From Alphaproteobacteria bacterium (GTDB lineage: Bacteria; Pseudomonadota; Alphaproteobacteria; UBA9219; RFNS01): a stretch of DNA of 37,015 nt. Shown here one piece after another: positions 3,864 through 37,015 of this stretch; within the stretch, counting starts at the first letter, position 1; each line of letters begins with the position of its first letter. The notes beneath the pieces were generated by a model, which was given only the letters and a program-made list of their open reading frames with translations, searched no databases and was not told the DNA's origin. The stretch covers positions 1-37,015 of the forward strand of contig JAGOHT010000002.1 of NCBI GenBank assembly GCA_017996055.1. The letters run 5' to 3'. Made by a program: the position numbers and the translations under genes.

Positions 3864-4014
3864 GCCGCCGTATTTTAACCATGCTCAGGCTTTAGGCTCG
3901 AAAATGCATCAGTTATCAACAGTTTCCTGCCTTGCAGGCACTTGGTATGGTGCTGAAGCTGTTGAGCCGGAAGCGGAAATGCCGCTAAAATCACGGAATT
4001 AAGGGAGAATCACT

Positions 4015-4707: not shown

Positions 4708-4715
4708 GGTTCAGT

Positions 4716-8207: not shown

Positions 8208-8210
8208 CGG

Positions 8211-8972: not shown

Positions 8973-9026
8973 GGCACCCGAAAGCGGTTATATATGAGGC
9001 AATTGTCATAGCAGTTCTTTGAGACC

Positions 9027-9677
9027 ATGTCCGATTCTTATGCCGAGCAGGAAATTCAACGTCGCGGGCTGATGCTCGTGCTGTCTTCGCCTTCCGGCGC
9101 GGGCAAGACGACGATTTCGCGCCGTCTGCTCTCGCTCGATAGCCATTTGGCGCTCTCCATCTCGGTGACGACGCGGCAGCGCCGCCCGGGCGAGCTGCAT
9201 GGCACGCATTACTTCTTTCATGACACGACCGAATTCAACCTGATGGTCAATCGTGGCGAATTGCTGGAGCACGCTAAAGTCTTCGGCAATTATTACGGCA
9301 CACCGCGCGCGCCTGTGGAAGCGCATTTGGCAGCGGGACGTGATGTGCTCTTTGATATCGATTGGCAGGGCACGCAGCAGCTGGTGGAAAAAGCTCGCGA
9401 TGATTTGGTGAGCGTGTTTATTCTGCCGCCGTCATGGCGCGAGTTGGAGCGGCGCATCCATACGCGCGCACAGGATACGGCGGAGGAAATTGCGCGGCGT
9501 ATGGCGAAGGCGGCGGACGAGATGAGCCATTGGGCGGAATATGACTACGTCATCGTCAACCGCGATCTCGACGCCAGCGTGGCGCATATTCAGGCCATTT
9601 TGCATAGCGAACGCCTCAAACGTCGCCGGCAGGTCGGCCTCTCGGAATTCGTCAAGGCGCTGCAGCAGGGGCTATAA
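9027..9677 (+). CDS. gmk: guanylate kinase
   Basis: 216 aa. P-loop LVLSSPSGAGKTTISRRLL, and the blocks SVTTRQRRPGE..G..Y.F and GNYYGTP. Confidence 0.95.
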   Translation: MSDSYAEQEIQRRGLMLVLSSPSGAGKTTISRRLLSLDSHLALSISVTTRQRRPGELHGTHYFFHDTTEFNLMVNRGELLEHAKVFGNYYGTPRAPVEAHLAAGRDVLFDIDWQGTQQLVEKARDDLVSVFILPPSWRELERRIHTRAQDTAEEIARRMAKAADEMSHWAEYDYVIVNRDLDASVAHIQAILHSERLKRRRQVGLSEFVKALQQGL

Positions 9678-9678
9678 T

Positions 9679-10539
9679 CTACCATACCCGCGGCACGCGA
9701 CCGCCTTTGGCGTAGAACTGCTGCTTAAGCAGATAGCCTGGGTCAGCGTGCTTTTTGCGCTTCGGCGGATTAATCAGCTCTTTCAAACGCAGCATATTGG
9801 TTTTGACTGTCGCTTTTTCCTTGGCGGTTGGGGCTTGCGGCCTTAGCTGCATCAAGCCATCAAACATCGCGCAAAGAACCACAGCGGCTTGTCGGAAACT
9901 GCCGCCCTGGGTCTGGTCGTGCGCGGCGGTCACAATATCCTTTGGCGTGCCGCGCATGATGGTGTTGCGCTGCCCTTGTGTATCATCAAAATAGGACAGA
10001 ATTTTCCCCTGTCGCAGCGTAACGACCACTTGCGGCGCATAGGGGCTTGCCGTAGTTGGGTTCGGCTGGCAGGTGGTATCTGATGCAAGTGCAAAGCCAA
10101 GATAAGTTTTTTGCGATGCCAAATGCTGCTGGGTTTTTTTCAGCAAGTCAGGGTGATCGCGAAGAATGCGGAGCGTCTTGAAAAAATTAGCGCGTTTCGT
10201 GGCGCGCGCGCCATTGACGGCACCAACTTCTTCAAGCTGGTTTTGCATATAAGCAGCTAAAACCACGGGAAAAGCTTGCGCGAGGCTTGGCGTATCGGGC
10301 GTCGTTTTCAACGAATCTTGGATTTTTTCAAGCTTGTGCAACGTGGTGGCAACGTGATTGAAACGCCCCGTCACCAGCTGCTGATCGATGGCGCAGGCGA
10401 TGCCTCTGCCGATATCGCCAAGCGTCTGGGGCGCCTTTTGATTGTGGTCATGCACGAGCCGGTTGAGGCCGTCGAAATTTTGATCCCACACATAAGTATC
10501 AGCGCCGTAAAAGCGCGAAACAATCCCTGACGTCGACAT
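9679..10539 (-). CDS. hypothetical protein (orphan; no motif recognised)
   Basis: Open frame 9679..10551. The listed start is TTG; ATG four codons in (10539) is preferred (MSTSGIVSRFYG...). No signal peptide or TM segment. Basic C-terminal tail PPKRKKHADPGYLLKQQFYAKGGRVPRVW. Its stop lies 1 nt from the gmk stop (convergent). Confidence 0.6.
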   Translation of the reverse strand: MSTSGIVSRFYGADTYVWDQNFDGLNRLVHDHNQKAPQTLGDIGRGIACAIDQQLVTGRFNHVATTLHKLEKIQDSLKTTPDTPSLAQAFPVVLAAYMQNQLEEVGAVNGARATKRANFFKTLRILRDHPDLLKKTQQHLASQKTYLGFALASDTTCQPNPTTASPYAPQVVVTLRQGKILSYFDDTQGQRNTIMRGTPKDIVTAAHDQTQGGSFRQAAVVLCAMFDGLMQLRPQAPTAKEKATVKTNMLRLKELINPPKRKKHADPGYLLKQQFYAKGGRVPRVW

Positions 10540-10633
10540 CGCAATAACCAAAAATAATGAAATTAATAAAATCCAGAACGGTATATTAGCGCAATATTCA
10601 AATTAGGTGAAAGAGGGCTGCCCATAATTACTT

Positions 10634-12868: not shown

Positions 12869-13038
12869 ATTAATTGTTACAGCTTTCAAAGTGTTGCGAC
12901 AGTGTGTGGCGTCTAGATAGACTACAATATATGCAGCACACAGCCATTGGACTATCACTATTCGATGGTGACAACGTCTATGTTTATCGTAGCATGAAGC
13001 TTAGATTCTCCATCAGACCGTCTTAAGAGGAACTAACC

Positions 13039-13586: not shown

Positions 13587-14252
13587 TCATCGTCCAACAA
13601 TGACGTGGACGGCAGCGACTATTTTTGCCGACCGGGTCCATGTCTCTGATGGTTTATGCTGGCGGCAAATTATATTGCCATTCGACCAACTTACGAATTC
13701 TTTGGTATAGGTTTGGCCATTTTTCAACTCTACTAAGCAGTCCTGGCCTGTTTTGGGTGGGATATTTGATACGCAGTAGACTAATTCGCCTTGATGGAAA
13801 CGTGGTTCCATACTGTCGCCTGAAACATAAGTTGCGAAGGCATGACGTATTCCTTCTTGTTTGGGGTGTCGCGGTGCGGTGCCGATATGCTCACTTATCT
13901 GAGCCGCATTACCGTCAGATAAAATACTACTGTGACCTAATATAGGAACAGTGTGCGGATCTTGTGAAATACGTTTGGGGTCTTTGCCACAATACTTTAT
14001 TTCAGGCTGAGGGATATTATCCCCGAGCAGTTCATTGCTACTAATCTCAAGCGCCTTTGCCAGCGCAACCATTTCACGAAATGTTTTTGTTCTTCCATTT
14101 TCAAGAGAAGAAATTTCGGCTTGGGTTGTAGTTGTTCCAGATTGTTTACGCATTTTTACAGCCAAAGCTTCGGCGCTTATTCCGAGATCCTTACGCCGTT
14201 GACGTACACGTTCACCAAGCAATTTATTTGATGCGTTGCCCAACAAGGTCAT
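13587..14252 (-). CDS. XRE-family HTH / S24 (LexA/CI-like) peptidase repressor
   Basis: 221 aa. N-terminal HTH LGERVRQRRKDLGISAEALAVKM...ISSLENG. C-terminal S24 motif VSGDSMEP, with a downstream Lys in TYTKEF. Confidence 0.85.
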   Translation of the reverse strand: MTLLGNASNKLLGERVRQRRKDLGISAEALAVKMRKQSGTTTTQAEISSLENGRTKTFREMVALAKALEISSNELLGDNIPQPEIKYCGKDPKRISQDPHTVPILGHSSILSDGNAAQISEHIGTAPRHPKQEGIRHAFATYVSGDSMEPRFHQGELVYCVSNIPPKTGQDCLVELKNGQTYTKEFVSWSNGNIICRQHKPSETWTRSAKIVAAVHVIVGR

Positions 14253-25070: not shown

Positions 25071-25667
25071 CTATAACTTGCGGGCCACGAGATCAATCAG
25101 AGCCGAAGTGCCGACATGGGCTGTACCTTCGCATATTTGCGTCTCATATGATTGCAGCGCGATAATTTCAAAATCTTCGAAACTCTGACGGAGCAATTCT
25201 TCTGTGTATAGGTTTTCAACTTCTGAGGGGCCGCCGGTACGGAATTCAAGTTGTTGTGGAGTGTAGCCGTGCAGGAAGATTAGCCCGTTGGGTTTAAGGG
25301 CGTTTTTCATAGCAGCAAATATTCGGTCCCGCGCTGGTGGCTTTGAGAATTGTATAAAAATACCAATGACATAGTCATAAACAGCTTCTGGCCAATGCCA
25401 ATTCATCACGTCGCATTGCTCAAGTGTTAGCGTGACCCCATGTTCTGCCGCGAGCAGATTGGCTTTTTCAAGAGCTGCAGATGAACCATCGATGGCGTGA
25501 ACGTCAATTCCTTGCTCTGCGAGCCAAACGCCGTTTCGACCTTCGCCGTCCGCTACACAGAGTGCCTTTCTGCCTGAGGAAAGGAATTGAGTATGCTTTA
25601 TCAAGAATTGGCTTGGTTCTTTGCCAAAAAGATAGTCGTTTGAGTTGTAGCGTTCATTCCAATCCAT
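25071..25667 (-). CDS. class I SAM-dependent methyltransferase (TehB-like small-molecule MTase type)
   Basis: 198 aa. SAM motif I ALCVADGEGRNGVWLAEQG, then IDGSSAAL and a post-I acidic residue. Its start shares 1 nt with the RND stop (TAATG). Confidence 0.85.
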   Translation of the reverse strand: MDWNERYNSNDYLFGKEPSQFLIKHTQFLSSGRKALCVADGEGRNGVWLAEQGIDVHAIDGSSAALEKANLLAAEHGVTLTLEQCDVMNWHWPEAVYDYVIGIFIQFSKPPARDRIFAAMKNALKPNGLIFLHGYTPQQLEFRTGGPSEVENLYTEELLRQSFEDFEIIALQSYETQICEGTAHVGTSALIDLVARKL

Positions 25668-28600
25668 TAGGCGGCCTTTCTTACTACCGCATCTGCGTCC
25701 CGTAAGACGACGTAGATCGCCGGGATAACTAGGACAGTAAGTGCTGTTGAAGACGCTAAACCAAACAAAAGCGAGATAGCCAGTCCTTGGAAAATCGGAT
25801 CAAGCAGGATTGTCGCCGCACCAATCATCGCCGCTAAAGCAGTCAGTAAAATCGGGCGGAAACGGATCGCTCCAGCATCCAAAAGCACTTCACGCAGTGT
25901 CTTGCCTTCACCCGCTCCATGGCGGATGAAATCGACCAAAAGAATGGAATTGCGTACGATAATCCCGGCTAAAGCTATAAATCCGATCATCGATGTCGCC
26001 GTAAAGGGTGCGTTGAAAATCCAGTGCCCAATGACGATACCAATCAGTGTAAGCGGTATGGGCGTGAGAATGACCAACGGCAGTTTGAAGCTTTTGAACT
26101 GGCTCACAACCAGAATGTAGATACCGAGTATCGCAATGGCAAATGCTGCGCCCATATCGCGGAAGGTGACGTAGGTCACCTCCCACTCGCCGTCCCAGAG
26201 CAGTGTTGGCTTGGCTTCGCTGACAGGTTGACCATGTAAGCTCACGACGGGTTTCGGCAGAGTGCCCCAGTCATGCTCATTTATAAGTTTATTGATATCG
26301 AGCATGCCGTAAATAGGAGCCTCATAGGCACCAGCGAGTTCGGCGGTGACCATATCGGCGTAATGCCCATCGCGCCGGAAGATTACCGAGGAGCCAAGTT
26401 CTTTGCTGGCATGGACGACATCATCAAGCTCAACGATGGAGCGGTTACCGGGAAGCGCATTGGCTGGAATTGGGGTTGCACCAAGCTGTTGCGACCACGT
26501 TAAATCCTGCTTCGGAAGGCGCATAACAATCGCGATGGGATTACGATCCTCGCCGCGATGGGAATAGCCAATTGTGGTTCCCCCTAGAAGTGCCCCTAAA
26601 GTGTCATAGACATCATTTTGTTCGACACCAAAATATTCCAGGCGATCCTGGTCAATTGATAAGCGCAGACGTGGCCTTGGCTGGCCAAAAGAGTCGTCAA
26701 TATCGACGATATAAGGCACTGAATGAAGAATTGTTTTAACTTCTTCAGCCACGGCACGCCGTGTAGCCACGTCGGGGCCATAGATTTCAGCGAGGAGCGT
26801 GGACAGTACCGGCGGACCGGGAGGAACCTCGACGACTTTGACGACGCTGCCAGCCGGCAAAGTCAACGCTTTCAGCTGATTACGGATATCCAGTGCGATT
26901 TCGTGACTGCTGCGTTTTCTATCGGCCTTGTCCGCGAGATTGACTTGCAATTCACCCAATTCGGGTTGCTCGCGCAAATAATAATGCCTTACGAGGCCAT
27001 TAAAATTGAATGGCGCAGGCGTTCCGGCATAGGCCTGGATCGACAGCACTTCGGGCGTCCTGCCCACGATGTGCGCGGCAGAGAGTAAGGCTTTTTCAGT
27101 GTCTTCAAGGCTTGCGCCTTCCGGCAAGTCAAGCATCACTTCAACTTCGGATTTATTATCAAACGGCAATAATTTGACTGTCACACTGCGGGTTGCAAAT
27201 AAACCGCAAACAAGGATGGTTGCTATCCCGACTGTGCCCAGAAACCACCACGCTCGGCGGCGCGAATGCAGAATTGGCGTGGCGACACGACGGTATAATT
27301 TTGCCAACACATCTTCTCCACCGTGAGGCGCGTGCGTCCCGTTCTGGCGGTTGGAGAGCTTGAGCATGGCCCAAGGGGCAACCACCATGGCGACAAAAAA
27401 AGAAAACAGCATGGCGGCGGAAGCATTGGCCGGAATAGGAGCCATATATGGCCCCATCATGCCTGAGACGAACATCATCGGTAACAGGGCGGCGATGACG
27501 GTTAGGGTCGCAACGATGGTGGGGTTCCCCACTTCGGCGACGGCCTCAATCGCTGCTTGCATGCGACTACGGCCATCTTGCATTGCCCAATGTCGCGCAA
27601 TATTTTCGATCACAACAATGGCGTCATCAACCAAAATGCCAATCGAGAAAATGAGCGCGAAAAGGCTCACGCGATTAATGGTGTAGCCCATGAGATTGGC
27701 CGCAAACATGGTCAAGAGAATAGTAGTTGGAATAACAATGAGGGTTACCCCGGCTTCACGCCAACCAATGGTGAAGCCAATCAATACGACAATCGAGAGC
27801 GTGGCTAACGCCAAGTGAAAAAGCAGTTCGTTGGCCTTATCGTTCGCGGTCTTGCCATAGTCGCGGGTAATATCGATTCGTATTCCTTTCGGAATAAGGG
27901 AGCCTTTTAATTGCTGAAGATGGTTTAACAGTGCTTCTGAAACCACGACAGCATTTGCGCCCGCACGTTTGGCAAAGGCAATGCTCACAGCCGACCCAGT
28001 AAACCAGTTTCGTTCTTTGTCAGGGGTCAGATTCCAGACACGATGCTCGGCGGCACTGGGGCCAACAATCACTTTGGCGACATCGCGGACGTAAACCGGG
28101 CGACCATCGCGTGAGGTCAGGAGGAGCAATCCGATGTCAGGAACACCGTGCAGGGTCTGCCCCGCCGTTACTTGCAGAGTTTTGCCGCCATCTCTTACAT
28201 AACCGGCCAAAAATGAGCGGTTCGCACCCTGAATTTTGCCTTTGAGTTGTTGCAGGGTTACGCCAAATAGGTTCAGCTTTTCCGGGTCTGGTTCAACGCT
28301 GATTTCATCACGGACACCACCGGAGATATAAGTCAGACCAATATCATCAACCTTGATAAGCTCGGATTGGACTTTATCGGCGAGTTCATAAAGGTCTTTA
28401 TCATTCCAGTGCTCCGCGACGGATTTTTCCGGCGAAAGGGTCATAACGACGACGGCGACATCGTTAATGCCCCGCTTGATGATCAGAGGTTCGGGTATGC
28501 CAACGGGAATACGGTTGTAATTTGCCCGAAGTTTCTCATGGACGCGAAGTACAGCGTCATCTTCCTTCGTGCCCGTTAGAAAACGGGCGGTGACCATGAC

Positions 28601-28882
28601 GCGGTCATCCTGCGTCTGGCTGTAAACATGCTCGACGCCGTTAATCCCTTTGACGATTTGTTCCAATGGCTTGGTGACAAGTTCGGTCGCATCGGGTGCT
28701 TTCAACCCGTCTGCCGATACCAGAATATCAACCATAGGCACACTGATTTGTGGCTCTTCTTCGCGCGGTATGACCATTAAAGCGGCTAGACCAAAGGCGA
28801 AAGCCGCCAAAAGAAAAAGAGGGGTTAGCGGCGAACTGATTGCGGCCCGCGTAAGATAGCCCGAAAGTCCAAGTTTCATCAT
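25667..28882 (-). CDS. RND-family efflux permease
   Basis: 1071 aa with 12-TM/large-loop RND architecture. Blocks FALIFSIGILVDDAIVVIENI and GFIALAGIIVRNSILLVDF. Confidence 0.93.
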   Translation of the reverse strand: MMKLGLSGYLTRAAISSPLTPLFLLAAFAFGLAALMVIPREEEPQISVPMVDILVSADGLKAPDATELVTKPLEQIVKGINGVEHVYSQTQDDRVMVTARFLTGTKEDDAVLRVHEKLRANYNRIPVGIPEPLIIKRGINDVAVVVMTLSPEKSVAEHWNDKDLYELADKVQSELIKVDDIGLTYISGGVRDEISVEPDPEKLNLFGVTLQQLKGKIQGANRSFLAGYVRDGGKTLQVTAGQTLHGVPDIGLLLLTSRDGRPVYVRDVAKVIVGPSAAEHRVWNLTPDKERNWFTGSAVSIAFAKRAGANAVVVSEALLNHLQQLKGSLIPKGIRIDITRDYGKTANDKANELLFHLALATLSIVVLIGFTIGWREAGVTLIVIPTTILLTMFAANLMGYTINRVSLFALIFSIGILVDDAIVVIENIARHWAMQDGRSRMQAAIEAVAEVGNPTIVATLTVIAALLPMMFVSGMMGPYMAPIPANASAAMLFSFFVAMVVAPWAMLKLSNRQNGTHAPHGGEDVLAKLYRRVATPILHSRRRAWWFLGTVGIATILVCGLFATRSVTVKLLPFDNKSEVEVMLDLPEGASLEDTEKALLSAAHIVGRTPEVLSIQAYAGTPAPFNFNGLVRHYYLREQPELGELQVNLADKADRKRSSHEIALDIRNQLKALTLPAGSVVKVVEVPPGPPVLSTLLAEIYGPDVATRRAVAEEVKTILHSVPYIVDIDDSFGQPRPRLRLSIDQDRLEYFGVEQNDVYDTLGALLGGTTIGYSHRGEDRNPIAIVMRLPKQDLTWSQQLGATPIPANALPGNRSIVELDDVVHASKELGSSVIFRRDGHYADMVTAELAGAYEAPIYGMLDINKLINEHDWGTLPKPVVSLHGQPVSEAKPTLLWDGEWEVTYVTFRDMGAAFAIAILGIYILVVSQFKSFKLPLVILTPIPLTLIGIVIGHWIFNAPFTATSMIGFIALAGIIVRNSILLVDFIRHGAGEGKTLREVLLDAGAIRFRPILLTALAAMIGAATILLDPIFQGLAISLLFGLASSTALTVLVIPAIYVVLRDADAVVRKAA

Positions 28883-29925
28883 GGGTGAACCAGCGTATCG
28901 CCGACTTTAAGCCCAGAAAGGATTTCGATACTCACGGGCAAATCCGGAAGCGTTAAAACATGGCCGCGCTGTACTGGCACTTCAATAACAGTGCTATCGC
29001 TTTGTTTAAGCTGTATAAAATCAATGCCGTTCTGTGTTGTAATATAGTCTCCTGGTATGGCTAAGGCTTTGCGCGTTCCCGTTGATACCCAGACGCGTAC
29101 GCGTTCACCGACGAAATAATCGCCGACGCCATTCAGAACCGCATCAGCTTGCAAGCGGCCATTTTCAATCTTGGGGTATATCAATTTGATCGTACCAGAT
29201 TGCGTTGCCGATAGCCCTAAATCACTGCCATCAACCCGAATGGCATCGCCAGCCTTGATAAAAGCTGCATGCCGTTCCGGCACACTGAGACGCAGAATGT
29301 AGTTCTGCTCCGCTATCGTTGCGACAGGTTCACCGGCCATAATGACAGTACCGGCGGTGATGGGCACCGTTAAAACGCGTCCAGCGGTAGGGGCGAGTAT
29401 TTTTCCCTCGGTCTGCTGCTGCTGGACAACGGATTGTTGCGCCGTCTGAGACTTTAGGTTGTTGATGGCGACGTTATGGGCCGTACGCAATTGTTCGACC
29501 CGAGCTTTAGTAGCGTAGCCCTGTTGGACAAGTTTTTCAGCACGATCAAGATCTAAACGAGTTTGATCAACCTCAGCCTGCGCGGCACGGGCTTGTGCTT
29601 CCAGAGATTGAATTTGTAGGCCGATCTTCTGGTCGCCTACAGTAGCGATGACTTGGTCGCGTTCGACACGATCGCCTTGCTTAATTTTGAGTTCAACGAT
29701 CGTTCCGCCGATACGGGCGCGGGCTGGGACGACATTAGCACTTTCAACGGTAGCAAATACGGCTTTCTCATCGACGGTTAATTTCTCAACAACCGAATAT
29801 TCAGGTTTAGTAATCGTAGCGGCTGTGGGAGGAGAGTCGGCAGCCAATGATATATCGCTGCAACAGATATAGACCAGAGACATAAGTAGAGCCATTACAG
29901 CTCGATTGTGAAAAATGGCTTTCAT
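28879..29925 (-). CDS. RND efflux periplasmic adaptor (membrane fusion protein)
   Basis: 348 aa. Signal/anchor N-terminus, biotinyl-lipoyl-like GGTIVELKIKQGDRVERDQVIATV, a coiled-coil hairpin and a beta-barrel C-terminus. Overlaps the RND start by 4 nt. Confidence 0.9.
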   Translation of the reverse strand: MKAIFHNRAVMALLMSLVYICCSDISLAADSPPTAATITKPEYSVVEKLTVDEKAVFATVESANVVPARARIGGTIVELKIKQGDRVERDQVIATVGDQKIGLQIQSLEAQARAAQAEVDQTRLDLDRAEKLVQQGYATKARVEQLRTAHNVAINNLKSQTAQQSVVQQQQTEGKILAPTAGRVLTVPITAGTVIMAGEPVATIAEQNYILRLSVPERHAAFIKAGDAIRVDGSDLGLSATQSGTIKLIYPKIENGRLQADAVLNGVGDYFVGERVRVWVSTGTRKALAIPGDYITTQNGIDFIQLKQSDSTVIEVPVQRGHVLTLPDLPVSIEILSGLKVGDTLVHP

Positions 29926-29926
29926 C

Positions 29927-30286
29927 TTATTTTAGGTCACGAACGGTGCCACTGGCTGGGTCAAGTGCAATTGTGGGCAATTGGGCACTCTTCCAGGCCT
30001 GGATACCACCAGCCATATGGCTGTGATGAGCCAAGCCAGCCTCTATACAGCGCGCAACCGCAGTCGCCGACCGCTTGCCGGAGCCGCAATGGAAAACAAT
30101 CTGCCTTGAGGCAGGTGCGGGGAGCGCGGCAGGATCAAATGTTGATAATGGGAACAGCAACGCACCATGGATGCGTTCAGCGGCATATTCCTGCGGTTCA
30201 CGCACATCAATGAGGATGATTGATCGATCTGCGAGTTGTTGCGCCACCTCGGCTGGTGTCAGGTCTTTTTGTGTGAGTTGTGACAT
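29927..30286 (-). CDS. single-domain rhodanese (sulfurtransferase)
   Basis: 119 aa. Shows LIDVREPQEY and the active-site loop FHCGSGKRS. Confidence 0.9.
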   Translation of the reverse strand: MSQLTQKDLTPAEVAQQLADRSIILIDVREPQEYAAERIHGALLFPLSTFDPAALPAPASRQIVFHCGSGKRSATAVARCIEAGLAHHSHMAGGIQAWKSAQLPTIALDPASGTVRDLK

Positions 30287-30288
30287 TA

Positions 30289-30651
30289 TCAGGTTCCTTT
30301 GCGTTTTCTAAGTTTGCTGGATGCGGGCTTATCTTTCCCGCATAGAGGCAACGGCGTACAATAAATGCGATAAAGCGTTTCCAAGAGCGTTCTGGCTTCG
30401 GCACTTTTGATCGAGTACCACATCGTTTGGCCATCACGCCGAGCCACGACGAGACCACAATTGCGCATGAGGGCTAGATTCTGTGAAACTGTCGTGGAGC
30501 GAATACCGAGAAACTCGGCCAGTTCGCCAACAGACTTCTCGCCCTCGACCAATTGGCAAAGAATAACCAATCGATGCGGGTTCGCGACAGCCTTGAGTAA
30601 GTCACAGGCTTCAGCGGCTGTTTCCAGCATATGCTCAGCATTAATATTCAT
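30289..30651 (-). CDS. ArsR/SmtB-family regulator, SqrR/BigR-like (candidate persulfide sensor)
   Basis: 120 aa. HTH core ANPHRLVILCQLVEGEKSVGELAEFLGIRSTTVSQNLALMRNCGLV. Cys32 lies in the helix before the HTH, and Cys98/Cys104 lie in the C-terminal helix. The Cys32-Cys98 spacing is 66 residues. Confidence 0.85.
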   Translation of the reverse strand: MNINAEHMLETAAEACDLLKAVANPHRLVILCQLVEGEKSVGELAEFLGIRSTTVSQNLALMRNCGLVVARRDGQTMWYSIKSAEARTLLETLYRIYCTPLPLCGKDKPASSKLRKRKGT

Positions 30652-30677
30652 ACTTGCGAATATACAGAAACAGGAAT
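30644..30677. promoter_or_regulatory. candidate SqrR/BigR-type operators: ATATTC-N8-GAATAT followed by ATAC-N8-GAAT
   Basis: The perfect inverted repeat spans 30644-30649 and 30658-30663 and contains ATTC-N8-GAAT. An adjacent imperfect second site spans 30662-30677. It overlaps the regulator's start codon and the sqr promoter. Confidence 0.5.
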
Positions 30678-30682
30678 ATAAT
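30654..30682 (+). promoter_or_regulatory. sigma70-like promoter for sqr (TTGCGA-17 nt-TATAAT)
   Basis: -35 TTGCGA at 30654-30659 and a perfect -10 TATAAT at 30677-30682, 24 nt upstream of the sqr ATG. GGAGG RBS at 30696-30700. Confidence 0.5.
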
Positions 30683-30705
30683 GCAAGTGAATTTTGGAGG
30701 TAACA

Positions 30706-32004
30706 ATGGCCGAAGTCGTTGTTTTAGGCGCAGGTTTAGGCGGTTCTTTAGCCGCCTACGAGCTTCGTGCGCAGCTAAGAACAGAAGATCGACTCACCGT
30801 CATTGGTCAGGGGGCACACTACCATTTTGTACCCTCAAATCCTTGGGTTGCTGTCGGTTGGCGTAAGCGTAAGGATATCGAAATCGATATTGCCAGCGTT
30901 ATGGCCGATAAATCTATTCGCTATTATTCGCAGGGTGCAAAACGACTCAAGCCTGAGGAAAATTGTCTTATTCTCGGTGACGACACCATCGTTCCCTATG
31001 ATTACCTATTAATTGCCACCGGCCCTGATTTAGCTTTTGATGAAATTGAAGGGTTGGGACCGAACGGGTTCACGCAGTCCGTTTGCCACATTGAACACGC
31101 CGAGAAATCTTACACGGCATTCGAGAAATTTGTTGAGAACCCTGGGCCAGTGATCATTGGCGCGGTTCAGGGGGCTTCTTGTTTTGGCCCAGCATATGAA
31201 TTCGCCTTTATCTTGGACACAGAATTGCGTCGCCGGAAAATTCGCGACCAAGTGCCGATGACATTTGTGACTTCAGAGCCCTACATCGGCCATCTTGGTT
31301 TGGATGGTGTCGGCGATACCAAGGGTATGCTCGAAAGCGAATTTCGTAACCGCCATATCAAATTGGTTACCAGTGCCAAGGTTAAGAAGGTAGAAGCTGG
31401 CCAGATGGCTATTGAAGAGATTGGCGAGGACGGTACGGTCAAAAAAGAAGCAGTCTTGCCGTTTCATTATGCCATGATGCTCCCTGCTTTCCGAGGCGTT
31501 CCGGCAATCAAAGACATTCCTGGTCTCGTGAACCTGCGCGGGTTTGTCTTGATTGATCAGTTCCAACGCAGCAAAGCCTTCGCGAATATCTTCGCGGTCG
31601 GAGTGTGCGTCGCCATTCCTCCTATCGCTGCTACACCTGTGCCTGTCGGCGTCCCCAAAACCGGCTTTATGATTGAGTCCATGGTGACGGCAGCTTCGCG
31701 CAATATTGGGCAGATGCTGCGTAACAAGCCTGTCAACGTCATGGCGACATGGAATGCGATTTGTCTTGCTGATTTTGGTGACAGTGGCGTCGCTTTTGTG
31801 GCGCAACCAGAAATGCCGCCGCGCAATGTCAACTGGTCGTCAAAAGGCCGCTGGGTACATTGGGCTAAGCAGGCATTCGAGAAATTTTTTCTCTACAAAA
31901 TTCGTCGTGGCAAGAGCGAGCCATTCTATGAGCATTGGGGCTTGCAATTGTTGGGGATACGGAAATTGAAAATCACCAAGGCAATGAAGCAACAACAACT
32001 CTAA
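30706..32004 (+). CDS. sqr: sulfide:quinone oxidoreductase (type I-like)
   Basis: FAD motif VVVLGAGLGGSLAAYEL. Three Cys in the expected contexts: TQSVCH, GASCFGPAYEF and AVGVCVAIPP. ATG 30706, after the GGAGG RBS, is preferred over the track's TTG at 30694. Confidence 0.9.
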   Translation: MAEVVVLGAGLGGSLAAYELRAQLRTEDRLTVIGQGAHYHFVPSNPWVAVGWRKRKDIEIDIASVMADKSIRYYSQGAKRLKPEENCLILGDDTIVPYDYLLIATGPDLAFDEIEGLGPNGFTQSVCHIEHAEKSYTAFEKFVENPGPVIIGAVQGASCFGPAYEFAFILDTELRRRKIRDQVPMTFVTSEPYIGHLGLDGVGDTKGMLESEFRNRHIKLVTSAKVKKVEAGQMAIEEIGEDGTVKKEAVLPFHYAMMLPAFRGVPAIKDIPGLVNLRGFVLIDQFQRSKAFANIFAVGVCVAIPPIAATPVPVGVPKTGFMIESMVTAASRNIGQMLRNKPVNVMATWNAICLADFGDSGVAFVAQPEMPPRNVNWSSKGRWVHWAKQAFEKFFLYKIRRGKSEPFYEHWGLQLLGIRKLKITKAMKQQQL

Positions 32005-32027
32005 CCAACACAAAAAAGGTAGATAAC

Positions 32028-32264
32028 ATGAACAAGAACATCCACCCGGTCGAAAGAATAATCCGTGTCGTTGGCGGCGCAGTCTTGGCGTCAATGGCGT
32101 TCTGGGGTCCGCAGAATATGTGGTTCTTATTAGGGTTAATCCCACTGGCCACCGGATTAATGGGCTGGTGCCCTCCCTATGCAATGCTGGGAATTAATAC
32201 AGCAAAAATGTGTGGCGCAAAGTGTGGTTGCGGGACGCCCAATCAACCAAAGGGGATGTCATGA
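32028..32264 (+). CDS. DUF2892 (YgaP-type membrane domain) protein with a Cys-rich tail
   Basis: 78 aa. HPVERIIRVVGGAVLASMAFWG...LIPLATGLMGWCPPYAMLGINT, then the tail AKMCGAKCGCGTPNQPKGMS. Confidence 0.75.
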   Translation: MNKNIHPVERIIRVVGGAVLASMAFWGPQNMWFLLGLIPLATGLMGWCPPYAMLGINTAKMCGAKCGCGTPNQPKGMS

Positions 32265-32467
32265 CAAACCTAGACCAAGCAGTGCTGCGCTTTGCCTCTG
32301 TCGTTGTTCTGGGCAGCCTTGCTTTGGCTTATGCTCATAGCAGCTACTGGCTTTTGCTGACGGCATTTGCCGGGCTGAACATGCTGCAAGCGAGTTTTAC
32401 CGGTTTTTGCCCCGCTGCAATTGTTTTTAAGAAACTCGGCGTTCAGGTGGGTAATGCCTTCCGCTAA
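32261..32467 (+). CDS. DUF2892 (YgaP-type membrane domain) protein
   Basis: 68 aa. MTNLDQAVLRFASVVVLGSLALAY...LTAFAGLNMLQASFTGFCPAAIVFKKLG. Its ATG overlaps the previous stop (ATGA). Confidence 0.75.
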   Translation: MTNLDQAVLRFASVVVLGSLALAYAHSSYWLLLTAFAGLNMLQASFTGFCPAAIVFKKLGVQVGNAFR

Positions 32468-32768
32468 AACAAAAAGGTCAACCGCTGCATGGCTCCTTAA
32501 AGCAAGCCGCTTGCTTAAGTCGCTTGCGCATCCTGTGCGGCTATCAATCCTGCAAACACTTTTGCGTGATGGTGAAATGAACGTCACGCAGATAGTGGTG
32601 TCTCAGAAGGGAATGGCTTCTCAATCACAGGTTTCTCAATTTCTTGCAAGAATGCGTCGTGAAGACTTGGTACAGGCACGTCGTGATGGAATTACCGTGT
32701 ATTACCGGGTGCGGTCGCGTGATGTTCAGAAGCTCTTGGAGGCCGTAGGCGGCATAACTTTTCACTAA
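32454..32768 (+). CDS. ArsR/SmtB-family regulator without any cysteine
   Basis: 104 aa from ATG 32454 (AGGTGG upstream). LLKSLAHPVRLSILQTLLRDGEMNVTQIV...SQSQVSQFLARMRREDLVQARRDGITVYYRV. The translation contains no Cys. Overlaps the preceding gene by 14 nt. Confidence 0.8.
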   Translation: MPSAKTKRSTAAWLLKASRLLKSLAHPVRLSILQTLLRDGEMNVTQIVVSQKGMASQSQVSQFLARMRREDLVQARRDGITVYYRVRSRDVQKLLEAVGGITFH

Positions 32769-32816
32769 AACTTTCCCGCCAAAATCAACTTCTCAAATCT
32801 ATCAAATGAGGAAGCA

Positions 32817-33170
32817 ATGACTAAAGACTATTCTGCTATCACAGGCGACATAAGTGCGTATACGGCTGAGTTGCGTAAGTTAATTCCTGAAGTTATGCAG
32901 GGCTTTAGCGGCATGGCAAAAGCCGCGCTCCAGACCAATTCCCTTGACGAAAAGACCAAAGAATTAATTGCCTTGGTGCTCGGCGTCGCCGCGCACTGTG
33001 ATGGCTGTTTAGGCTTTCATGCAAAAGCGTTAGCACGACTTGGAGCTTCGCATACAGAAGTTGCGGAAGCCCTGGGTATGGCCATTTATATGGGGGGAGG
33101 CCCTTCATTAATGTACGCTGCTGATGCGCTCCGGGCATTTGATCAATTCAAACCTAAAGATGCTGCATGA
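32817..33170 (+). CDS. carboxymuconolactone decarboxylase / AhpD-like family protein
   Basis: 117 aa. Shows the AhpD-type CxxC motif VAAHCDGCLGFH. Confidence 0.85.
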   Translation: MTKDYSAITGDISAYTAELRKLIPEVMQGFSGMAKAALQTNSLDEKTKELIALVLGVAAHCDGCLGFHAKALARLGASHTEVAEALGMAIYMGGGPSLMYAADALRAFDQFKPKDAA

Positions 33171-33403
33171 GCACGAAGCCACCCGAAGTCACTCGACCTG
33201 CTGAAATGCCGAGGAGCCCCAGCCTGCGAAGGTCACTACGCTGGGAAATAACCGGCATACTGGTTTTTAAGTTGACGATAATTCTGGTGGCGGGTTTCAC
33301 GATATTTGGGGCGAGCCACCGCGTTCATGTCAATGCAGACGCCATGACAAATAAGATACTTAGCAACGTTAAGCCTACTACGGTCGAAAAAACGAGGGAA
33401 TGA
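33167..33403 (+). CDS. small single-TM protein upstream of cydA (CydP-like, tentative)
   Basis: 78 aa. Basic N-terminus then a TM helix, LRWEITGILVFKLTIILVAGFTIFG. ATGA overlaps at both ends (with the AhpD-like gene and with cydA). Confidence 0.55.
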   Translation: MSTKPPEVTRPAEMPRSPSLRRSLRWEITGILVFKLTIILVAGFTIFGASHRVHVNADAMTNKILSNVKPTTVEKTRE

Positions 33404-34971
33404 AAATGGAAATGATGGATGTAGTCACCTTATCCCGTCTGCAATTTGGTCTGACGGCTATGTACCATTTTCTGTTCGTGCCACTGACTCTTGGCCTATC
33501 GCTTCTACTGGCGATCATGGAAAGCGTTTGGGTTATGACCGGGCGTACCATCTGGCGCGATATGGTCAAGTTCTGGGGCATATTGTTTGGCATTAATTTT
33601 GCCATGGGGGTCGCTACCGGCATCACGATGGAGTTCCAGTTCGGCACTAACTGGGCTTACTATTCGCATTACGTTGGTGATATTTTTGGTGCGCCATTGG
33701 CAATTGAAGGACTTATGGCGTTCTTTCTTGAGGCAACTTTTGTTGGTTTGTTCTTTTTCGGTTGGGATAAACTCTCGCGTGTTCAACATTTAGTTTGCAC
33801 GTGGTTATTGGCTTTAGGGGCAAACCTTTCAGCACTTTGGATTCTCATTGCGAATGGCTGGATGCAGAACCCAGTTGGTTCACGCTTCAATGTTGACACC
33901 ATGCGTATGGAAGTTACCAATTTCGCGGATGTTATCTTTAATCCAGTGGCTCAAGCAAAGTTTGTGCACACCGTGAGTGCAGGTTATGTCACGGGCGCAA
34001 TCTTTGTTTTAGCGCTGAGCGCATGGTACCTTCTCAAGGGAAGGCACATTGAGATCGCCAAACGTTCAATGACGGTAGCCGTGTGTTTTGGGTTGGCTTC
34101 CGCCTTGTCAGTTGTCGTGCTGGGCGATGAAAGCGGGTACACAGCCAGTCAAAATCAGAAAATGAAAATCGCGGCTATTGAAGCTGTGTGGCACACTGAA
34201 GAAGCCCCAGCGGGGCTTACTCTTTTCGGAATACCTGATTCTGAGCATCAAATCACGCGCTTTGAGATTAAGTTGCCGTGGGCATTAGGATTAATTGCGA
34301 CGCGTTCGATTGATCAGGAAGTCCCAGGAATTGCTAATCTCGTTGAGCAAAATAAAGCACGCATACGTAACGGAATGCTTGCTTATGCGGCACTTGAGAA
34401 GCTGCGGCATGATCGAAAAAATAGTGTCCTGCTTGAGCAGTTTAATGCCCATGAAGCTGATTTGGGATACGCATTATTGCTGAAGCGTTATACTGACGAC
34501 CCGACTCATGCTGACGAAAAAATGATTGCGGCGGCGGCACATGATACTGTGCCCAACATTCCAGTATTGTTCTGGAGTTTCCGTATCATGGTGGCACTGG
34601 GGTTTTACTTCATCGGCCTGTTTGCCCTTGGGTTCTATTACGCCAGTCTCCGGCAGCTTGAGAGAAGAAAACTATTTCTTAAGTTCGCCTTTCTCTCTTT
34701 ACCGCTGCCCTGGATATCCGCTGAACTGGGCTGGGTTGTTGCCGAAATGGGAAGGCAGCCATGGACAATTGACGGTGTTCTGCCAACGTTTTTGTCGGCG
34801 TCTTCCACAGCAGTAGTTAATGTCTGGATATCTTTAGGCGGTTTTGTGTTGTTTTACTCGACACTCTTGGTGGTCGAAATATTCTTAATGATCAAATACA
34901 TCAAGCTTGGCCCACAAGAAAATGCAGTGGTTCCAGCACAGAACGGCATCGCTCAAAATGGAGGAATTTAA
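33400..34971 (+). CDS. cydA: cytochrome bd ubiquinol oxidase subunit I
   Basis: 523 aa. Shows SRLQFGLTAMYHFLFVPLTLG, GINFAMGVATGITMEFQFGTNWAYYSHYVGDIFGAPLAIEGLMAFFLE and GRQPWTI. It has a long Q-loop. The start could instead be Met5 or Met6 (33412/33415). Confidence 0.96.
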   Translation: MKMEMMDVVTLSRLQFGLTAMYHFLFVPLTLGLSLLLAIMESVWVMTGRTIWRDMVKFWGILFGINFAMGVATGITMEFQFGTNWAYYSHYVGDIFGAPLAIEGLMAFFLEATFVGLFFFGWDKLSRVQHLVCTWLLALGANLSALWILIANGWMQNPVGSRFNVDTMRMEVTNFADVIFNPVAQAKFVHTVSAGYVTGAIFVLALSAWYLLKGRHIEIAKRSMTVAVCFGLASALSVVVLGDESGYTASQNQKMKIAAIEAVWHTEEAPAGLTLFGIPDSEHQITRFEIKLPWALGLIATRSIDQEVPGIANLVEQNKARIRNGMLAYAALEKLRHDRKNSVLLEQFNAHEADLGYALLLKRYTDDPTHADEKMIAAAAHDTVPNIPVLFWSFRIMVALGFYFIGLFALGFYYASLRQLERRKLFLKFAFLSLPLPWISAELGWVVAEMGRQPWTIDGVLPTFLSASSTAVVNVWISLGGFVLFYSTLLVVEIFLMIKYIKLGPQENAVVPAQNGIAQNGGI

Positions 34972-34972
34972 A

Positions 34973-36112
34973 ATGTTTGATTACGAAGTCCTACGTTTGA
35001 TCTGGTGGGCGTTGCTAGGAGTTCTGCTTGTTGGATTTGCCGTCATGGACGGTTTTGATTTTGGTGCTGCGGCGTTATTGCCATTTCTCGGCAAGGATGA
35101 TGAAGAAAGACGCGTCATTATCAACACTGTTGGCCCCGTATGGGAAGGCAACCAAGTGTGGTTGATTCTTGGCGGCGGAGCAATATTCGCAGCATGGCCC
35201 TATATCTATGCCGTGGCATTTTCAGGCTTCTACCTTGCTATGTTTCTTGTGCTTTGTACTTTGATTCTAAGGCCGGTCTCTTTCAAATTTCGGAGCAAAA
35301 TGCCCAGTGCTCAGTGGCGCAGTTTCTGGGACTGGTGTCTGTTTATCAGCGGCACTGTGCCGCCGGTTATTTTTGGGGTTGCAGTTGGGAATGCACTTGA
35401 AGGTGTTCCATTTACCTTCGACGATACAATGCGGATGACCTATACGGGGTCTTTGCTTGGGTTGCTTAATTCTTTTGCTTTGTTGGCAGGATTCGTCAGT
35501 TTGGCAATGACCCTGACACAAGGAGCCGTCTGGCTGACTGTTAAGACAGATGGTGACGTGCAGAAAAGAGCCAGAAAGGTTGCCATTTTATCGGCAATTA
35601 CGACCCTTGTGTTATTTGGTGCTGCTGGCTTTTGGGTTGCCCACGGAGTGGATGGTTATCGTCTAACTAGCGAGGCCGCTATGAATGGCCCTTCAAACCC
35701 TATGTTGAAAACTGTTGTGCGGGAGAGTGGCTACTGGATGGCCAATTACGCAAGGTGGCCAATCAGTATGCTGGTTCCTGCGCTTGCCTTCCTGGGCGGC
35801 ATTGTAGTCGTGGCCGCTGTGGCTCTGCGTCGATACGGTCTGGCATTTATAGGCAACTCGCTGACGATTGCGGGCATCATCGCCACGGTGGGTTTCTCAA
35901 TGTTTCCCTTCCTACTGCCGTCATCGCTTGATCCAAACGCTAGCCTGACTGTATGGGATGCTTCGTCCAGTAGAATGACGCTCATCATTATGACAATCGT
36001 GGCGGCTATATTTGTGCCAATTGTCCTAGCTTACACGGGCTGGGTTTACAGTGTGCTACGGGGCAAGGTCACCAAAGCTTACATCCGCGAGCAGGGCAAG
36101 ACCGTTTACTAA
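34973..36112 (+). CDS. cydB: cytochrome bd ubiquinol oxidase subunit II
   Basis: ATG at 34973 lies 1 nt after the cydA stop: MFDYEVLRLIWWALLGVLLVGFAVMDGFDFG...VWEGNQVWLILGGGAIFAAWP. The track ORF start at 34907 lies inside cydA. Confidence 0.95.
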   Translation: MFDYEVLRLIWWALLGVLLVGFAVMDGFDFGAAALLPFLGKDDEERRVIINTVGPVWEGNQVWLILGGGAIFAAWPYIYAVAFSGFYLAMFLVLCTLILRPVSFKFRSKMPSAQWRSFWDWCLFISGTVPPVIFGVAVGNALEGVPFTFDDTMRMTYTGSLLGLLNSFALLAGFVSLAMTLTQGAVWLTVKTDGDVQKRARKVAILSAITTLVLFGAAGFWVAHGVDGYRLTSEAAMNGPSNPMLKTVVRESGYWMANYARWPISMLVPALAFLGGIVVVAAVALRRYGLAFIGNSLTIAGIIATVGFSMFPFLLPSSLDPNASLTVWDASSSRMTLIIMTIVAAIFVPIVLAYTGWVYSVLRGKVTKAYIREQGKTVY

Positions 36113-36130
36113 ATCTGAGAGAGGAAAGTC

Positions 36131-36247
36131 ATGTGGTACTTTAGCTGGATTCTAGGTCTTGGGTTGGCCTGCGGTTTCGCAGTTCTCAACGCGTTATGGT
36201 TTGAGTTAGATGCTGACAAGAGTGCCAACAAGATGTCTGACGATTAA
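36131..36247 (+). CDS. cydX: cytochrome bd oxidase small subunit CydX
   Basis: 38 aa, MWYFSWILGLGLACGFAVLNALWFELDADKSANKMSDD. It has the MWYF.WILG signature. GAGGAAAG RBS upstream. Not in the ORF track because it is too short. Confidence 0.85.
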   Translation: MWYFSWILGLGLACGFAVLNALWFELDADKSANKMSDD

Positions 36248-36566
36248 CTAAATTGTATTTTGGGGCATTCTTTTAGTATCGGACTGTTCTGCTCTGGCTT
36301 GGGGAATGCATTGCCGGCTTGGCCGGCAAATCACGGAACCGAGAAGCTGAACATTACTTTCAGTATAACGCGACCTAAACCCAAAAACAGGATTCTGTGC
36401 CTCTATATATAGGAGGGTAATTTGCTGTTTGGAGCCATACATCCTCAAATCAAGTGCATCATCGGGAGTGCTAACTTGTAAAACATGGACGCTATGGAAC
36501 GTCTGGAGACGATGGGGAACGTTGACGGACAAACGCGCTAGAAGTGCATGAAAACGTTGATTTTAC

Positions 36567-36594
36567 TTGACTTTCTCTAATCTCGTGATATGGT
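36567..36594 (+). promoter_or_regulatory. candidate sigma70 promoter TTGACT-16 nt-TATGGT
   Basis: -35 at 36567-36572 and -10 at 36589-36594. It is followed within about 110 nt by two plus-strand terminator-like hairpins. Confidence 0.3.
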
Positions 36595-36625
36595 ACACGT
36601 ACATTGTGAGACATAATTTTTTGTA

Positions 36626-36656
36626 GTCGTTCAGGCTTTGTCTGTGCGGCTTTTTT
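36626..36656 (+). terminator. weak intrinsic terminator candidate
   Basis: GUCGUUC (36626-36632) pairs with GUGCGGC (36644-36650), with 2 G-U pairs and 1 mismatch, and is followed by T6 (36651-36656). Confidence 0.3.
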
Positions 36657-36678
36657 ATTACCTAAATTTCTGTGCCCC

Positions 36679-36710
36679 GCTGCCTGTTCGTACGAACGGC
36701 GGCTTTTTTT
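36679..36710 (+). terminator. intrinsic (rho-independent) terminator
   Basis: GCUGCC(U)GUUC - GUAC loop - GAAC GGCGGC gives a stem of about 10 bp with one bulge and one G-U pair, followed by T7 (36704-36710). Confidence 0.6.
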
Positions 36711-36744
36711 ATTTCCAAAATTTATATTTATCCGGAGGTATGCC

Positions 36745-37015
36745 ATGTCAGGTCACGATACCGAGAAACCCGACATCCGTCTTCAATTTCGGCAAGCAGC
36801 AATAGCGGCCTGTAAGCTTGAGACTGATACCAACACGGACTCCCACGCATCACCCAAATTGTCAGCCAATGGTAGCACCAACAAGGTGGACTCCCAGTGG
36901 TCAGACCAGAAGGGTAACACCAAGAGTTCCACGCAAGTTGCGCCCTTGGTCAGACCACCTGTGGTCAGACCAAAAGCATGCGGGCTAAAGCCCAAGCGGA
37001 AACGACCCTACAGGC
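36745..37015 (+). CDS. possible 5' part of a protein gene running off the right edge (unknown function)
   Basis: GGAGG sits 6 nt upstream of the ATG, and the frame is open for 90 codons to the window end (MSGHDTEKPDIRLQFRQAAIAACKLETDT...KPKRKRPYR). The sequence is low-complexity Ser/Thr/Lys/Pro-rich and is overlaid by DNA-level palindromes, so coding status is uncertain. Confidence 0.3.
   Translation, partial: MSGHDTEKPDIRLQFRQAAIAACKLETDTNTDSHASPKLSANGSTNKVDSQWSDQKGNTKSSTQVAPLVRPPVVRPKACGLKPKRKRPYR
36898..36972. repeat. three exact copies of the 11-bp palindrome TGGTCAGACCA
   Basis: Copies at 36898-36908, 36947-36957 and 36962-36972. GGACTCCCA also occurs twice (36837-36845 and 36888-36896). 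Confidence 0.85.

Follow-up and report, generated by a model that had tools for sequence, protein, structure and literature searches.

A sulfide:quinone oxidoreductase gene chained to cytochrome bd genes beside a divergent SqrR-type repressor gene

Genes and features of the sqr–cydX chain

The DNA analysed here, called the window throughout, is a stretch of 37,015 nucleotides (nt) at positions 1 to 37,015 of contig JAGOHT010000002.1 from an alphaproteobacterium. Our subject is a run of nine genes packed on its forward strand at 30706-36247, which leads from sqr, the gene for a sulfide:quinone oxidoreductase (SQR), to cydX, the last gene of a cytochrome bd quinol oxidase. It is established that SQR feeds the quinone pool and that cytochrome bd allows bacteria to respire in the presence of sulfide, and to judge from its sequence the locus probably places sqr and the bd oxidase under one sulfide-sensing switch. 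The open reading frame (ORF) listing and the sequence give the following features.

30706-32004, + strand: sqr, type I sulfide:quinone oxidoreductase (Pyr_redox_2; PDB 3sz0, E=2e-142; catalytic Cys motifs aligned)
32028-32264, + strand: DUF2892a, YgaP-like transmembrane protein with a GWCPPY motif and a Cys-rich tail (Pfam PF11127, E=5e-19)
32261-32467, + strand: DUF2892b, YgaP-like transmembrane protein with a GFCPAA motif (Pfam PF11127, E=3e-9)
32454-32768, + strand: arsR2, Cys-free paralogue of the SqrR clade (HTH_5/ArsR; best PDB match R. capsulatus SqrR)
32817-33170, + strand: CMD/AhpD-core protein with HCDGCLGFH (CxxCxxxH) (Pfam CMD, E=4e-20; TIGR00778)
33167-33403, + strand: CydP-like small membrane protein (NF045611, below cut-off; homologous ORFs upstream of cydA in relatives)
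33400-34971, likely true start 33406, + strand: cydA, cytochrome bd subunit I of the long Q-loop (bd-I) type (Cyt_bd_oxida_I, Pfam E=4e-171)
34973-36112, + strand: cydB, cytochrome bd subunit II (Cyt_bd_oxida_II; TIGR00203, 476 bits vs a cut-off of 117)
36131-36247, + strand: cydX, small subunit (YbgT/CydX; TIGR02106, 64.3 bits vs a cut-off of 31.6)
36265-36330, + strand: structured region 3' of cydX and possible transcript 3' end, a GC-rich hairpin UUGCCGGC-UUG-GCCGGCAA without a U tract

Consecutive genes are spaced by 23, -4, -14, 48, -4, -4, 1 and 18 nt (negative values being overlaps), and the CMD/cydP junction is an ATGA overlap. The nine-gene, same-strand order and the spacings given in a preliminary description of this DNA were reproduced in this way, with one amendment at the cydP/cydA junction, for which an ATGA overlap had also been reported. 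That overlap is present in the ORF coordinates, but with respect to a Shine-Dalgarno GAGG at 33394-33397 the ATG at 33406 is better placed than that at 33400, and CydA has 521 amino acids (aa) in the gene calls of relatives, so that cydP and cydA are probably 2 nt apart rather than overlapping. A scan for sequence signals found no terminator-like or promoter-like site in the 23-nt or the 48-nt gap, and the two gaps fold at -2.7 and -5.9 kcal/mol, no better than shuffles (z about 0), in agreement with the earlier statement that neither contains a terminator. A consensus promoter scan returned no promoter-like match between 31241 and 34262, and no FNR/Anr-type box with fewer than two mismatches was found before cydP and cydA in 32000-33400. 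Downstream of the chain, the sequence 36235-36345 folds at -34 kcal/mol (z=-2.2). We infer a single putative sqr–cydX transcription unit, with which the spacing, the start/stop overlaps and the absence of internal signals are all consistent.

The SQR at the head of the chain is predicted to be a catalytically complete type I enzyme. Its best solved structure is the type I SQR of A. ferrooxidans (3sz0, E=2e-142 over residues 2-423), followed by that of Aquifex (3hyv, E=5e-99), while human/type II enzymes match with just E=1e-15. The window motifs SVCHIEH, GASCFGPAYE and WNAICLADFG align with SICTVDH, GASCFGPAYE and WNAVCFADMG of 3sz0, in which we take the catalytic cysteines to be Cys128, Cys160 and Cys356.

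At the other end, subunits CydA, CydB and CydX are all encoded (PF01654, E=4e-171; PF02322, E=8e-106; TIGR00203 and TIGR02106 above their cut-offs). CydA aligns without gaps to E. coli CydA (6rko) over residues 1-502, including the long Q-loop, and keeps the contexts of H19, E99, H186, M393 and E445 (MYHFLF, AIEGLM, KFVHTV, FRIMVA and AEMGRQPW). It is not filed as an E. coli orthologue because its 747 bits fall below the E. coli-specific equivalog cut-off of 968. We read the set as a complete long-Q-loop CydABX with conserved heme-ligand contexts. The small protein encoded before cydA misses the curated NF045611 threshold (22.9 bits vs 29.6). Its homologues nevertheless lie immediately 5' of cydA in two loci at 51-53% identity (L085, L086) and in a third at 94% (L084) by tblastn, and a similar small ORF is found 5' of cydA at 4216-4491 of a further locus (L172). 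The earlier CydP-like assignment is thus upheld by homologous ORFs 5' of cydA in unrelated contigs, though the score is below the cut-off.

Between the two enzymes lie the accessory genes. The DUF2892 pair score 68.6 and 37.2 bits for PF11127 (cut-off 25.3), and the C-terminal tail of DUF2892a is rich in cysteine (CGAKCGCG), beside its GWCPPY motif. The CMD protein (TIGR00778, 46.3 bits vs a cut-off of 27.8; PF02627, E=4e-20) has both the AhpD core domain and the CxxC motif on which its description as AhpD-like had been based, with Cys61 and Cys64 in HCDGCLGFH. A scan for Lactamase_B, the metallo-beta-lactamase fold of persulfide dioxygenases (PDO), gave no match in the 30 window proteins covered (ORFs of at least 110 aa), which bears out the remark that the window carries no such gene, and no PDO was found in the annotated relatives L001, L003, L084, L095 and L176. 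According to PMC5358917, a DUF2892 gene is induced about tenfold by sulfide in Azospira.

The divergent repressor arm and its control region

On the opposite strand a five-gene arm runs leftward, from a SqrR-like repressor gene to a methyltransferase gene, with a 54-bp gap before sqr.

30289-30651, - strand: SqrR/BigR-type ArsR repressor with Cys32 and Cys98 (PDB matches HlyU, R. capsulatus SqrR (6O8L) and BigR)
29927-30286, - strand: single-domain rhodanese (sulfurtransferase) with Cys67 in an FHCGSGKRS loop (Pfam Rhodanese, E=7e-16)
28879-29925, - strand: membrane-fusion protein of a resistance-nodulation-division (RND) system (Pfam HlyD_3/HlyD_D23)
25667-28882, - strand: RND inner-membrane pump of the AcrB family (Pfam ACR_tran, E=2.6e-142)
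25071-25667, - strand: S-adenosylmethionine methyltransferase, TPMT/TehB-like, last gene of the leftward arm (Pfam Methyltransf_25/TPMT/TehB)
30644-30688, no strand: putative divergent promoter/operator region, ATATTC-N8-GAATAT plus a third GAATAT over a promoter-like site

Cys32 (VILCQL) and Cys98 (RIYC) of the SqrR-like protein align with the cysteines of R. capsulatus SqrR and of HlyU/BigR. The protein scores 89 bits against the NCBIfam BigR model, whose equivalog cut-off is 155, and its assignment is therefore made at family level only. This divergent two-Cys gene likely encodes the persulfide sensor of the locus. The preliminary description had drawn attention to the regulator embedded in the chain, arsR2, and did not mention the divergent gene. 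The embedded regulator is real and Cys-free as described, but lacking both sensing cysteines it is unlikely to be a sulfide sensor.

Among the promoter-like sites of the region the highest score (10/12) belongs to TTGCGA-17-TATAAT (30654-30682), which lies 24 nt 5' of sqr, and ATATTC-N8-GAATAT dyads overlap its -35 element. A core, ACTTGCG(A/T)ATATAC...GAATATA, is conserved in both placement and sequence across nearly all of 39 divergent sqrR–sqr loci, and its ACTTGCG(A/T)ATATAC part is single-copy in the window; searches with the core and for the inverted repeat found no second operator copy inside the operon. The motif ATTC-N8-GAAT, which we take to be the SqrR operator consensus, has its sole window copy in the sqrR–sqr gap. 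As a conserved SqrR operator it was rejected, since the 39 related intergenic regions contain it in just 5 cases, each of them in the window clade, and for this reason the longer core was used instead.

Two members of the leftward arm invite further comment. The TPMT/TehB-like methyltransferase travels with the core and, speculatively, could methylate sulfide, thiols or selenide; a more specific identification as an MddH-type H2S methyltransferase was dropped as speculation, the MddH paper giving no link to TPMT. That the RND pump exports polysulfide or sulfur made by SQR is an idea only.

Comparative genomics of the sqr module and its bd cassettes

The nearest relatives of SQR, CydA and ArsR come from metagenome-assembled genomes of Alphaproteobacteria. 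More distant loci, 160 in number (80 from genomes and 80 from metagenomes, with SQR at 63-72% identity), were compared by tblastn with the window proteins. Most of them contain, complete or in part, a widespread module in which RND pump, membrane-fusion protein, sometimes rhodanese, and sqrR stand divergent to sqr and DUF2892b, single components being detected in about half to two thirds of the 160. A DUF2892b orthologue follows sqr in roughly two thirds of the related loci; DUF2892a, by tblastn, is almost confined to the window clade, relatives having the DUF2892b type alone. About a quarter of relatives have a CMD orthologue (50-77% identity) somewhere in their sqr module. Because they are found across this widespread module, the DUF2892 and AhpD-like genes belong to sqr and not to cyd. 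As a side observation, the RND pump (61-79% identical), the fusion protein and often the rhodanese adjoin sqrR/sqr in most of the 160 loci, and the RND-linked sqr loci are mainly from Alphaproteobacteria, Bradyrhizobium and Rhodobacter among them.

The exact sqr–cydX arrangement is present in at least five other metagenome samples (L084, L088, L089, L090 and L091), the first of which shares 97% DNA identity with the window over 10.3 kb, and non-orthologous sqr–bd chains occur in L001/L176, L095, L136 and L172. The juxtaposition, for which restriction to a single strain had been considered, is thus not unique to one. By blastn, a 7.4-kb core of the window (25084-32490) is matched at 96.9% DNA identity in L176 (GCA_963852305.1) and L177, with sqr 99% identical, and at 85.5% in L001 (25078 to 32490). 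Against L176/L177 the homology begins at 25084, inside the end of the methyltransferase gene, and on the right it ends at a sharp junction.

32490-32491, no strand: right recombination junction between the core and a variable bd cassette, where blastn homology ends 36 nt into arsR2

To the right of this junction, L176, L177 and L001 carry genes for a ferritin-like protein, a Tll0287-like protein, a methyl-accepting chemotaxis protein (MCP) with a CZB domain, the short-type bd oxidase CioAB (467 and 340 aa) and a 50-aa ORF. To the left, L176 has an IS3-type transposase pair (2816-4056) vs kdp genes in the window. The first 36 nt of arsR2 survive in L176 and L001. Moreover, in a locus whose SQR is 74% identical (L095), sqr, DUF2892, an arsR2-like gene and CMD are followed at some remove by cydABX, with an opposite-strand Rrf2 gene before cydA. 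Together, the arsR2 remnant and the L095 order suggest that the second cassette is a replacement and the window-type order its predecessor. These homologies show that cydP–cydABX was joined by recombination to an older, widespread sqr module. The preliminary description had placed the accessories between sqr and cyd in one self-contained branch; they do lie there, but DUF2892 and CMD are part of the widespread module and cydP–cydABX is a separately acquired block.

Some further features of these relatives may be recorded. The alternative cassette occupies 11619-16605 in L001 and 11863-16870 in L176 and occurs also in L177; its Tll0287-like protein has a heme sensor fold. The MCP with its zinc-binding CZB domain, beside sqr and an oxidase, hints at sulfide or oxygen taxis, and an MCP/CZB gene is also present in L095. 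The sharp breakpoints on both sides and the IS3-type transposase suggest that the core, from methyltransferase to DUF2892b, moves as a module, and in L001 a recombinase and ars/mer genes lie beyond the cassette.

Beyond this close group, bd genes were found in the fetched flanks of three of the 160 distant SQR loci. One has sqr, then 31 nt, then cydP, cydA and cydB (L172); a second has sqr, a thioredoxin-like gene, DUF2892, about 600 nt and cioAB (L136). The third, L058, was rejected as a sqr–cyd operon, its cydABX being 5.7 kb away and separated from sqr by two long ORFs on the other strand, whose size and position resemble those of cydDC. All three matches fall in the 1.09 Mb downstream of sqr and on its strand, with none in 1.10 Mb upstream. 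Assuming, and not measuring, one to two bd loci per 5-Mb genome, about 0.3 would be expected by chance, and compared with this assumed density there is a modest but real excess. Three further architectures are found in the closer clade, those of the window, L176 and L095. The sqr-linked CydAs are 60-71% identical to each other and the window CydA is 84% identical to unlinked ones; because the linked proteins are no closer together than to unlinked ones, the sqr–bd joinings are taken to be independent. Where the preliminary description had proposed comparing the neighbourhoods of sqr and cydA across relatives, the linkage is seen to recur, but it is missing in about 97% of the distant SQR relatives sampled, which makes it lineage-specific and recurrent rather than generally conserved. 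From these comparisons the sqr–bd linkage emerges as rare, recurrent and independently assembled.

These data bear directly on an alternative in which the locus lies in a recombination-prone accessory region and adjacency entails no coupling. The cyd genes would keep their own oxygen- or redox-responsive promoter in the upstream coding sequence and serve micro-oxic respiration, with sqr a neighbour by chance or through a shared niche. The breakpoints at 25084 and 32490 and the differing flanks of L176, with its transposase, speak of recent shuffling, and the failure of sqr-linked CydAs to group together is as this alternative would have it. On the other hand, CMD and cydP overlap at their stop and start codons, with no room between them for a promoter, and the promoter-like matches and FNR-type box that such an arrangement might be expected to show are absent from the intervals given above. 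Furthermore, both cassettes behind the 97-99% identical sqr core end in a bd-type oxidase, all bd matches are downstream of sqr on the same strand with none upstream, and in L172 sqr is followed directly by cydPAB. We regard mere adjacency as unlikely, and the several independent assemblies of the sqr–bd pairing favour selection over chance.

Several observations weigh against a single sulfide-controlled unit, the first two of which also favour mere adjacency. The linkage is confined to 3 of about 121 assessable distant loci, and the closest CydA relatives (83-84% identity) belong to stand-alone cydP–cydABX operons among housekeeping genes, with no sqr nearby and an upstream region of their own. 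The consensus scan leaves room for a promoter buried in the CMD or arsR2 coding sequence. Proximity does not always mean one operon, since opposite-strand genes intervene in L058 (the cydDC-like ORFs) and in L095 (the Rrf2 regulator before cydA). Finally, resistance to sulfide has been demonstrated for bd enzymes of the E. coli type only, and for the enzyme of the window it is a prediction.

The embedded regulator, a proposed mechanism and known systems

The embedded regulator departs from its family at precisely the sensing residues. Its cysteine count is zero, as had been noted, with Gln in place of the first Cys (SILQTL) and ITF in place of IYC. A PDB search gave R. capsulatus SqrR as its closest solved relative, and it was aligned with 16 database homologues (38-51% alignment identity; 39-59% by BLASTP) and with the SqrR-like protein of the window. 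The C-terminal IYC cysteine is present in 17 of the 17 other sequences and the first Cys (SILC) in all but one of them (P0277). The recognition helix, SQSQVSQFLA[KR]MR, is retained and the helix-turn-helix motifs are kept. We conclude that arsR2 is, by all indications of this alignment, a SqrR-clade paralogue that has lost both sensing cysteines, a relative by descent and not a functional member. The SqrR switch is a Cys41/Cys107 tetrasulfide according to PMC12344995, and with both cysteines gone arsR2 is unable to form it. The same paper reports that SqrR/YgaV proteins also bind heme, Cys41 being the proposed ligand in SqrR.

An arsR2 orthologue after sqr in L095 (2025-2318, P0258) keeps the first Cys and ends in DIFL instead of IYC, which suggests that cysteine loss was stepwise in the sqr-embedded copies, with L095 as an intermediate. 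This progression, an N-terminus unlike that of the homologues, and the survival of just 36 nt of the gene in L176/L001 could also be the marks of a decaying, functionless remnant, without which the chain works. The ORF, however, is intact and 99-100% conserved in six samples and its helix-turn-helix motifs are conserved, and we consider decay very improbable. A comparison of dN/dS between the window and L084 involves only three substitutions, too few to inform.

A different alternative divides the chain into two nested units, in which arsR2 would be an autoregulated repressor of arsR2-CMD-cydPABX that answers a signal other than persulfide, such as heme, quinone or a metal, and SqrR would control sqr and the DUF2892 genes only. 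One arsR2 homologue (P0243) stands divergent to a set encoding a YgaP-like rhodanese-transmembrane protein, CMD and DUF2892, so that the arsR2 subgroup normally appears to partner the same accessory proteins. Homologues beside such sets, apparently local regulators, share the recognition helix with arsR2, and the core/cassette junction falls at the arsR2 5' end; the heme binding of SqrR/YgaV proteins mentioned above points the same way. Yet the first 14 nt of arsR2 lie within DUF2892b, neither a promoter-like nor an operator-like dyad was found before arsR2 or in the 48-nt gap ahead of CMD, the first 12 arsR2 codons are part of the conserved core, and the equivalent of the proposed heme ligand Cys41 has been lost too. 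Nested control of this kind seems to us quite improbable.

The interpretation that we prefer, with moderate confidence, is that the locus is a persulfide-controlled sulfide-response island in which two divergent arms share one 54-bp control region and SqrR runs a branch from sulfide through quinone to O2. By analogy with the mechanism of its family, the SqrR-like repressor (30289-30651) would keep both arms off until polysulfide derived from sulfide cross-links its cysteines and releases it. The rightward arm would then be made as one message, sqr-DUF2892a-DUF2892b-arsR2-CMD-cydP-cydABX. The type I SQR would pass electrons from H2S to quinone, leaving sulfane sulfur, and the bd-I-type oxidase made with it would re-oxidise the quinol with O2. 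Heme-copper oxidases are poisoned by sulfide. Since they are, and since bd oxidase is insensitive to it in E. coli, this branch could keep running amid its own substrate. With no PDO encoded in the window, handling and removal of the sulfane sulfur may be assigned to the DUF2892 proteins, the CxxC AhpD-like protein, the rhodanese and the RND pump. As for arsR2, a protein that keeps its DNA-binding helix and is blind to persulfide would most plausibly be a feedback repressor or modulator, although it could be a relic.

A bolder version of this idea, which we put forward tentatively and with more doubt than conviction, takes the 7.4-kb sqrR/sqr core as a mobile sulfide-response module behind which selection keeps a bd-type oxidase, with arsR2 as a feedback brake or as a heterodimer partner of SqrR. 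The exchange of cassettes, cydPABX vs cioAB, behind a 99% identical sqr is the observation to which it speaks. If it were true, SQR and a bd oxidase would form a dedicated, co-inherited sulfide-respiration unit, and with sensor-dead paralogues the sensing of reactive sulfur would gain a new level of control.

That sulfide, SQR and bd oxidase are linked in function and in regulation is already known, and what is new here is the arrangement in cis of an expected partnership. According to PMC9774250 and PMC5702731, which cite Forte 2016 and Korshunov 2016, the bd-I oxidase of E. coli is insensitive to sulfide; sulfide induces cydAB, which is also de-repressed in a mutant of ygaV, a SqrR homologue. 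The window resembles this system in having a SqrR-family persulfide sensor upstream of bd expression and the same long Q-loop type of CydABX. It differs in that E. coli has no SQR and reaches a separate cydAB operon in trans, whereas here sqr and cydPABX lie in cis behind the sensor's putative operator region. The SqrR–sqr system of R. capsulatus (6O8L; PMC12344995) likewise pairs a two-Cys ArsR-family repressor with a type I SQR, and the SQRs of Rhodobacter loci are about 65-67% identical to that of the window. Unlike it, the window adds rhodanese, RND and methyltransferase genes on the sensor arm and, on the sqr arm, two DUF2892 genes, the Cys-less paralogue, the AhpD-like gene and cydPABX, and the ATTC-N8-GAAT dyad is confined to the window clade.

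Other comparisons concern the make-up of the chain. The sqr–pdo operons of heterotrophs, as described in PMC5702731, are also inducible sqr-based detoxification clusters with rhodanese-type accessories, but where they have a persulfide dioxygenase the window has terminal oxidase genes. The Acidithiobacillus model, SQR to quinone to bd/bo3 oxidases (PMC2754497), uses the same electron path, and the SQR of the window is structurally closest to that of A. ferrooxidans. There, in contrast, sqr (AFE_1792) and cydAB (AFE_0955-0954) are unlinked and only co-regulated, being co-induced on sulfur. In the cyanobacterial sqr–arsR operons of Synechocystis and Geitlerinema (PMC4918915), too, an ArsR-type gene lies 3' of sqr in the same apparent operon and in a mobile context. 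Those ArsR proteins are responsive (to arsenite and sulfide) and no oxidase genes are present beside them, whereas in the window the embedded ArsR is Cys-less and the two-Cys one is divergent. The full-text literature that was searched, with incomplete coverage, did not describe an sqr–cydABX operon, a single sqr core followed by alternative bd cassettes, or a Cys-less SqrR paralogue.

In the systems and papers examined, then, SQR and bd oxidase are encoded apart, with regulation as their closest tie, and here they are fixed in cis behind the putative operator of a likely persulfide sensor. Their independent assembly with different bd oxidases in several lineages provides comparative evidence of selection, and the locus offers a compact, transferable 11-kb unit for asking if SQR and bd alone give sulfide-resistant, sulfide-driven respiration. 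It also raises the questions of how sulfane sulfur is removed without a PDO, a task for which the candidate genes are the conserved ones for the rhodanese, the RND pump, the DUF2892 proteins and the AhpD-like protein, and of what role a SqrR paralogue without sensing cysteines might play.

The wider window matched no Rfam family in its whole length, and an origin on a plasmid was dismissed after PLSDB gave short housekeeping-gene matches only (kdpB, cydA). Its GC content is 56-63% at 1-13000, a part that includes genes for class II ribonucleotide reductase, a DsbA-like protein, SMC and guanylate kinase, vs 42-55% at 13000-37015, with a minimum at 14-17 kb. At 13587-14252 there is a gene for a helix-turn-helix/Peptidase_S24 repressor-like protein, and it may be that the right-hand two thirds of the window were acquired. 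Downstream of the chain, within 36567-36712 (+ strand), a promoter-like TTGACT-16-TATGGT with an upstream TG is followed within about 110 nt by two U-tract hairpins at approximately 36625-36657 and 36679-36712 (fold z=-3.2), possibly a small RNA, with no Rfam match, or tandem terminators. An ORF at 36745-37015 (+ strand) is cut off by the end of the window. Its product is rich in Lys, Arg and Pro; the cut product is called as a 90-aa fragment in L087, where it has no Pfam match on record, and no family-model search was made with the ORF here. This ORF may start another accessory block, comparable to the recombinase and ars/mer genes of L001.

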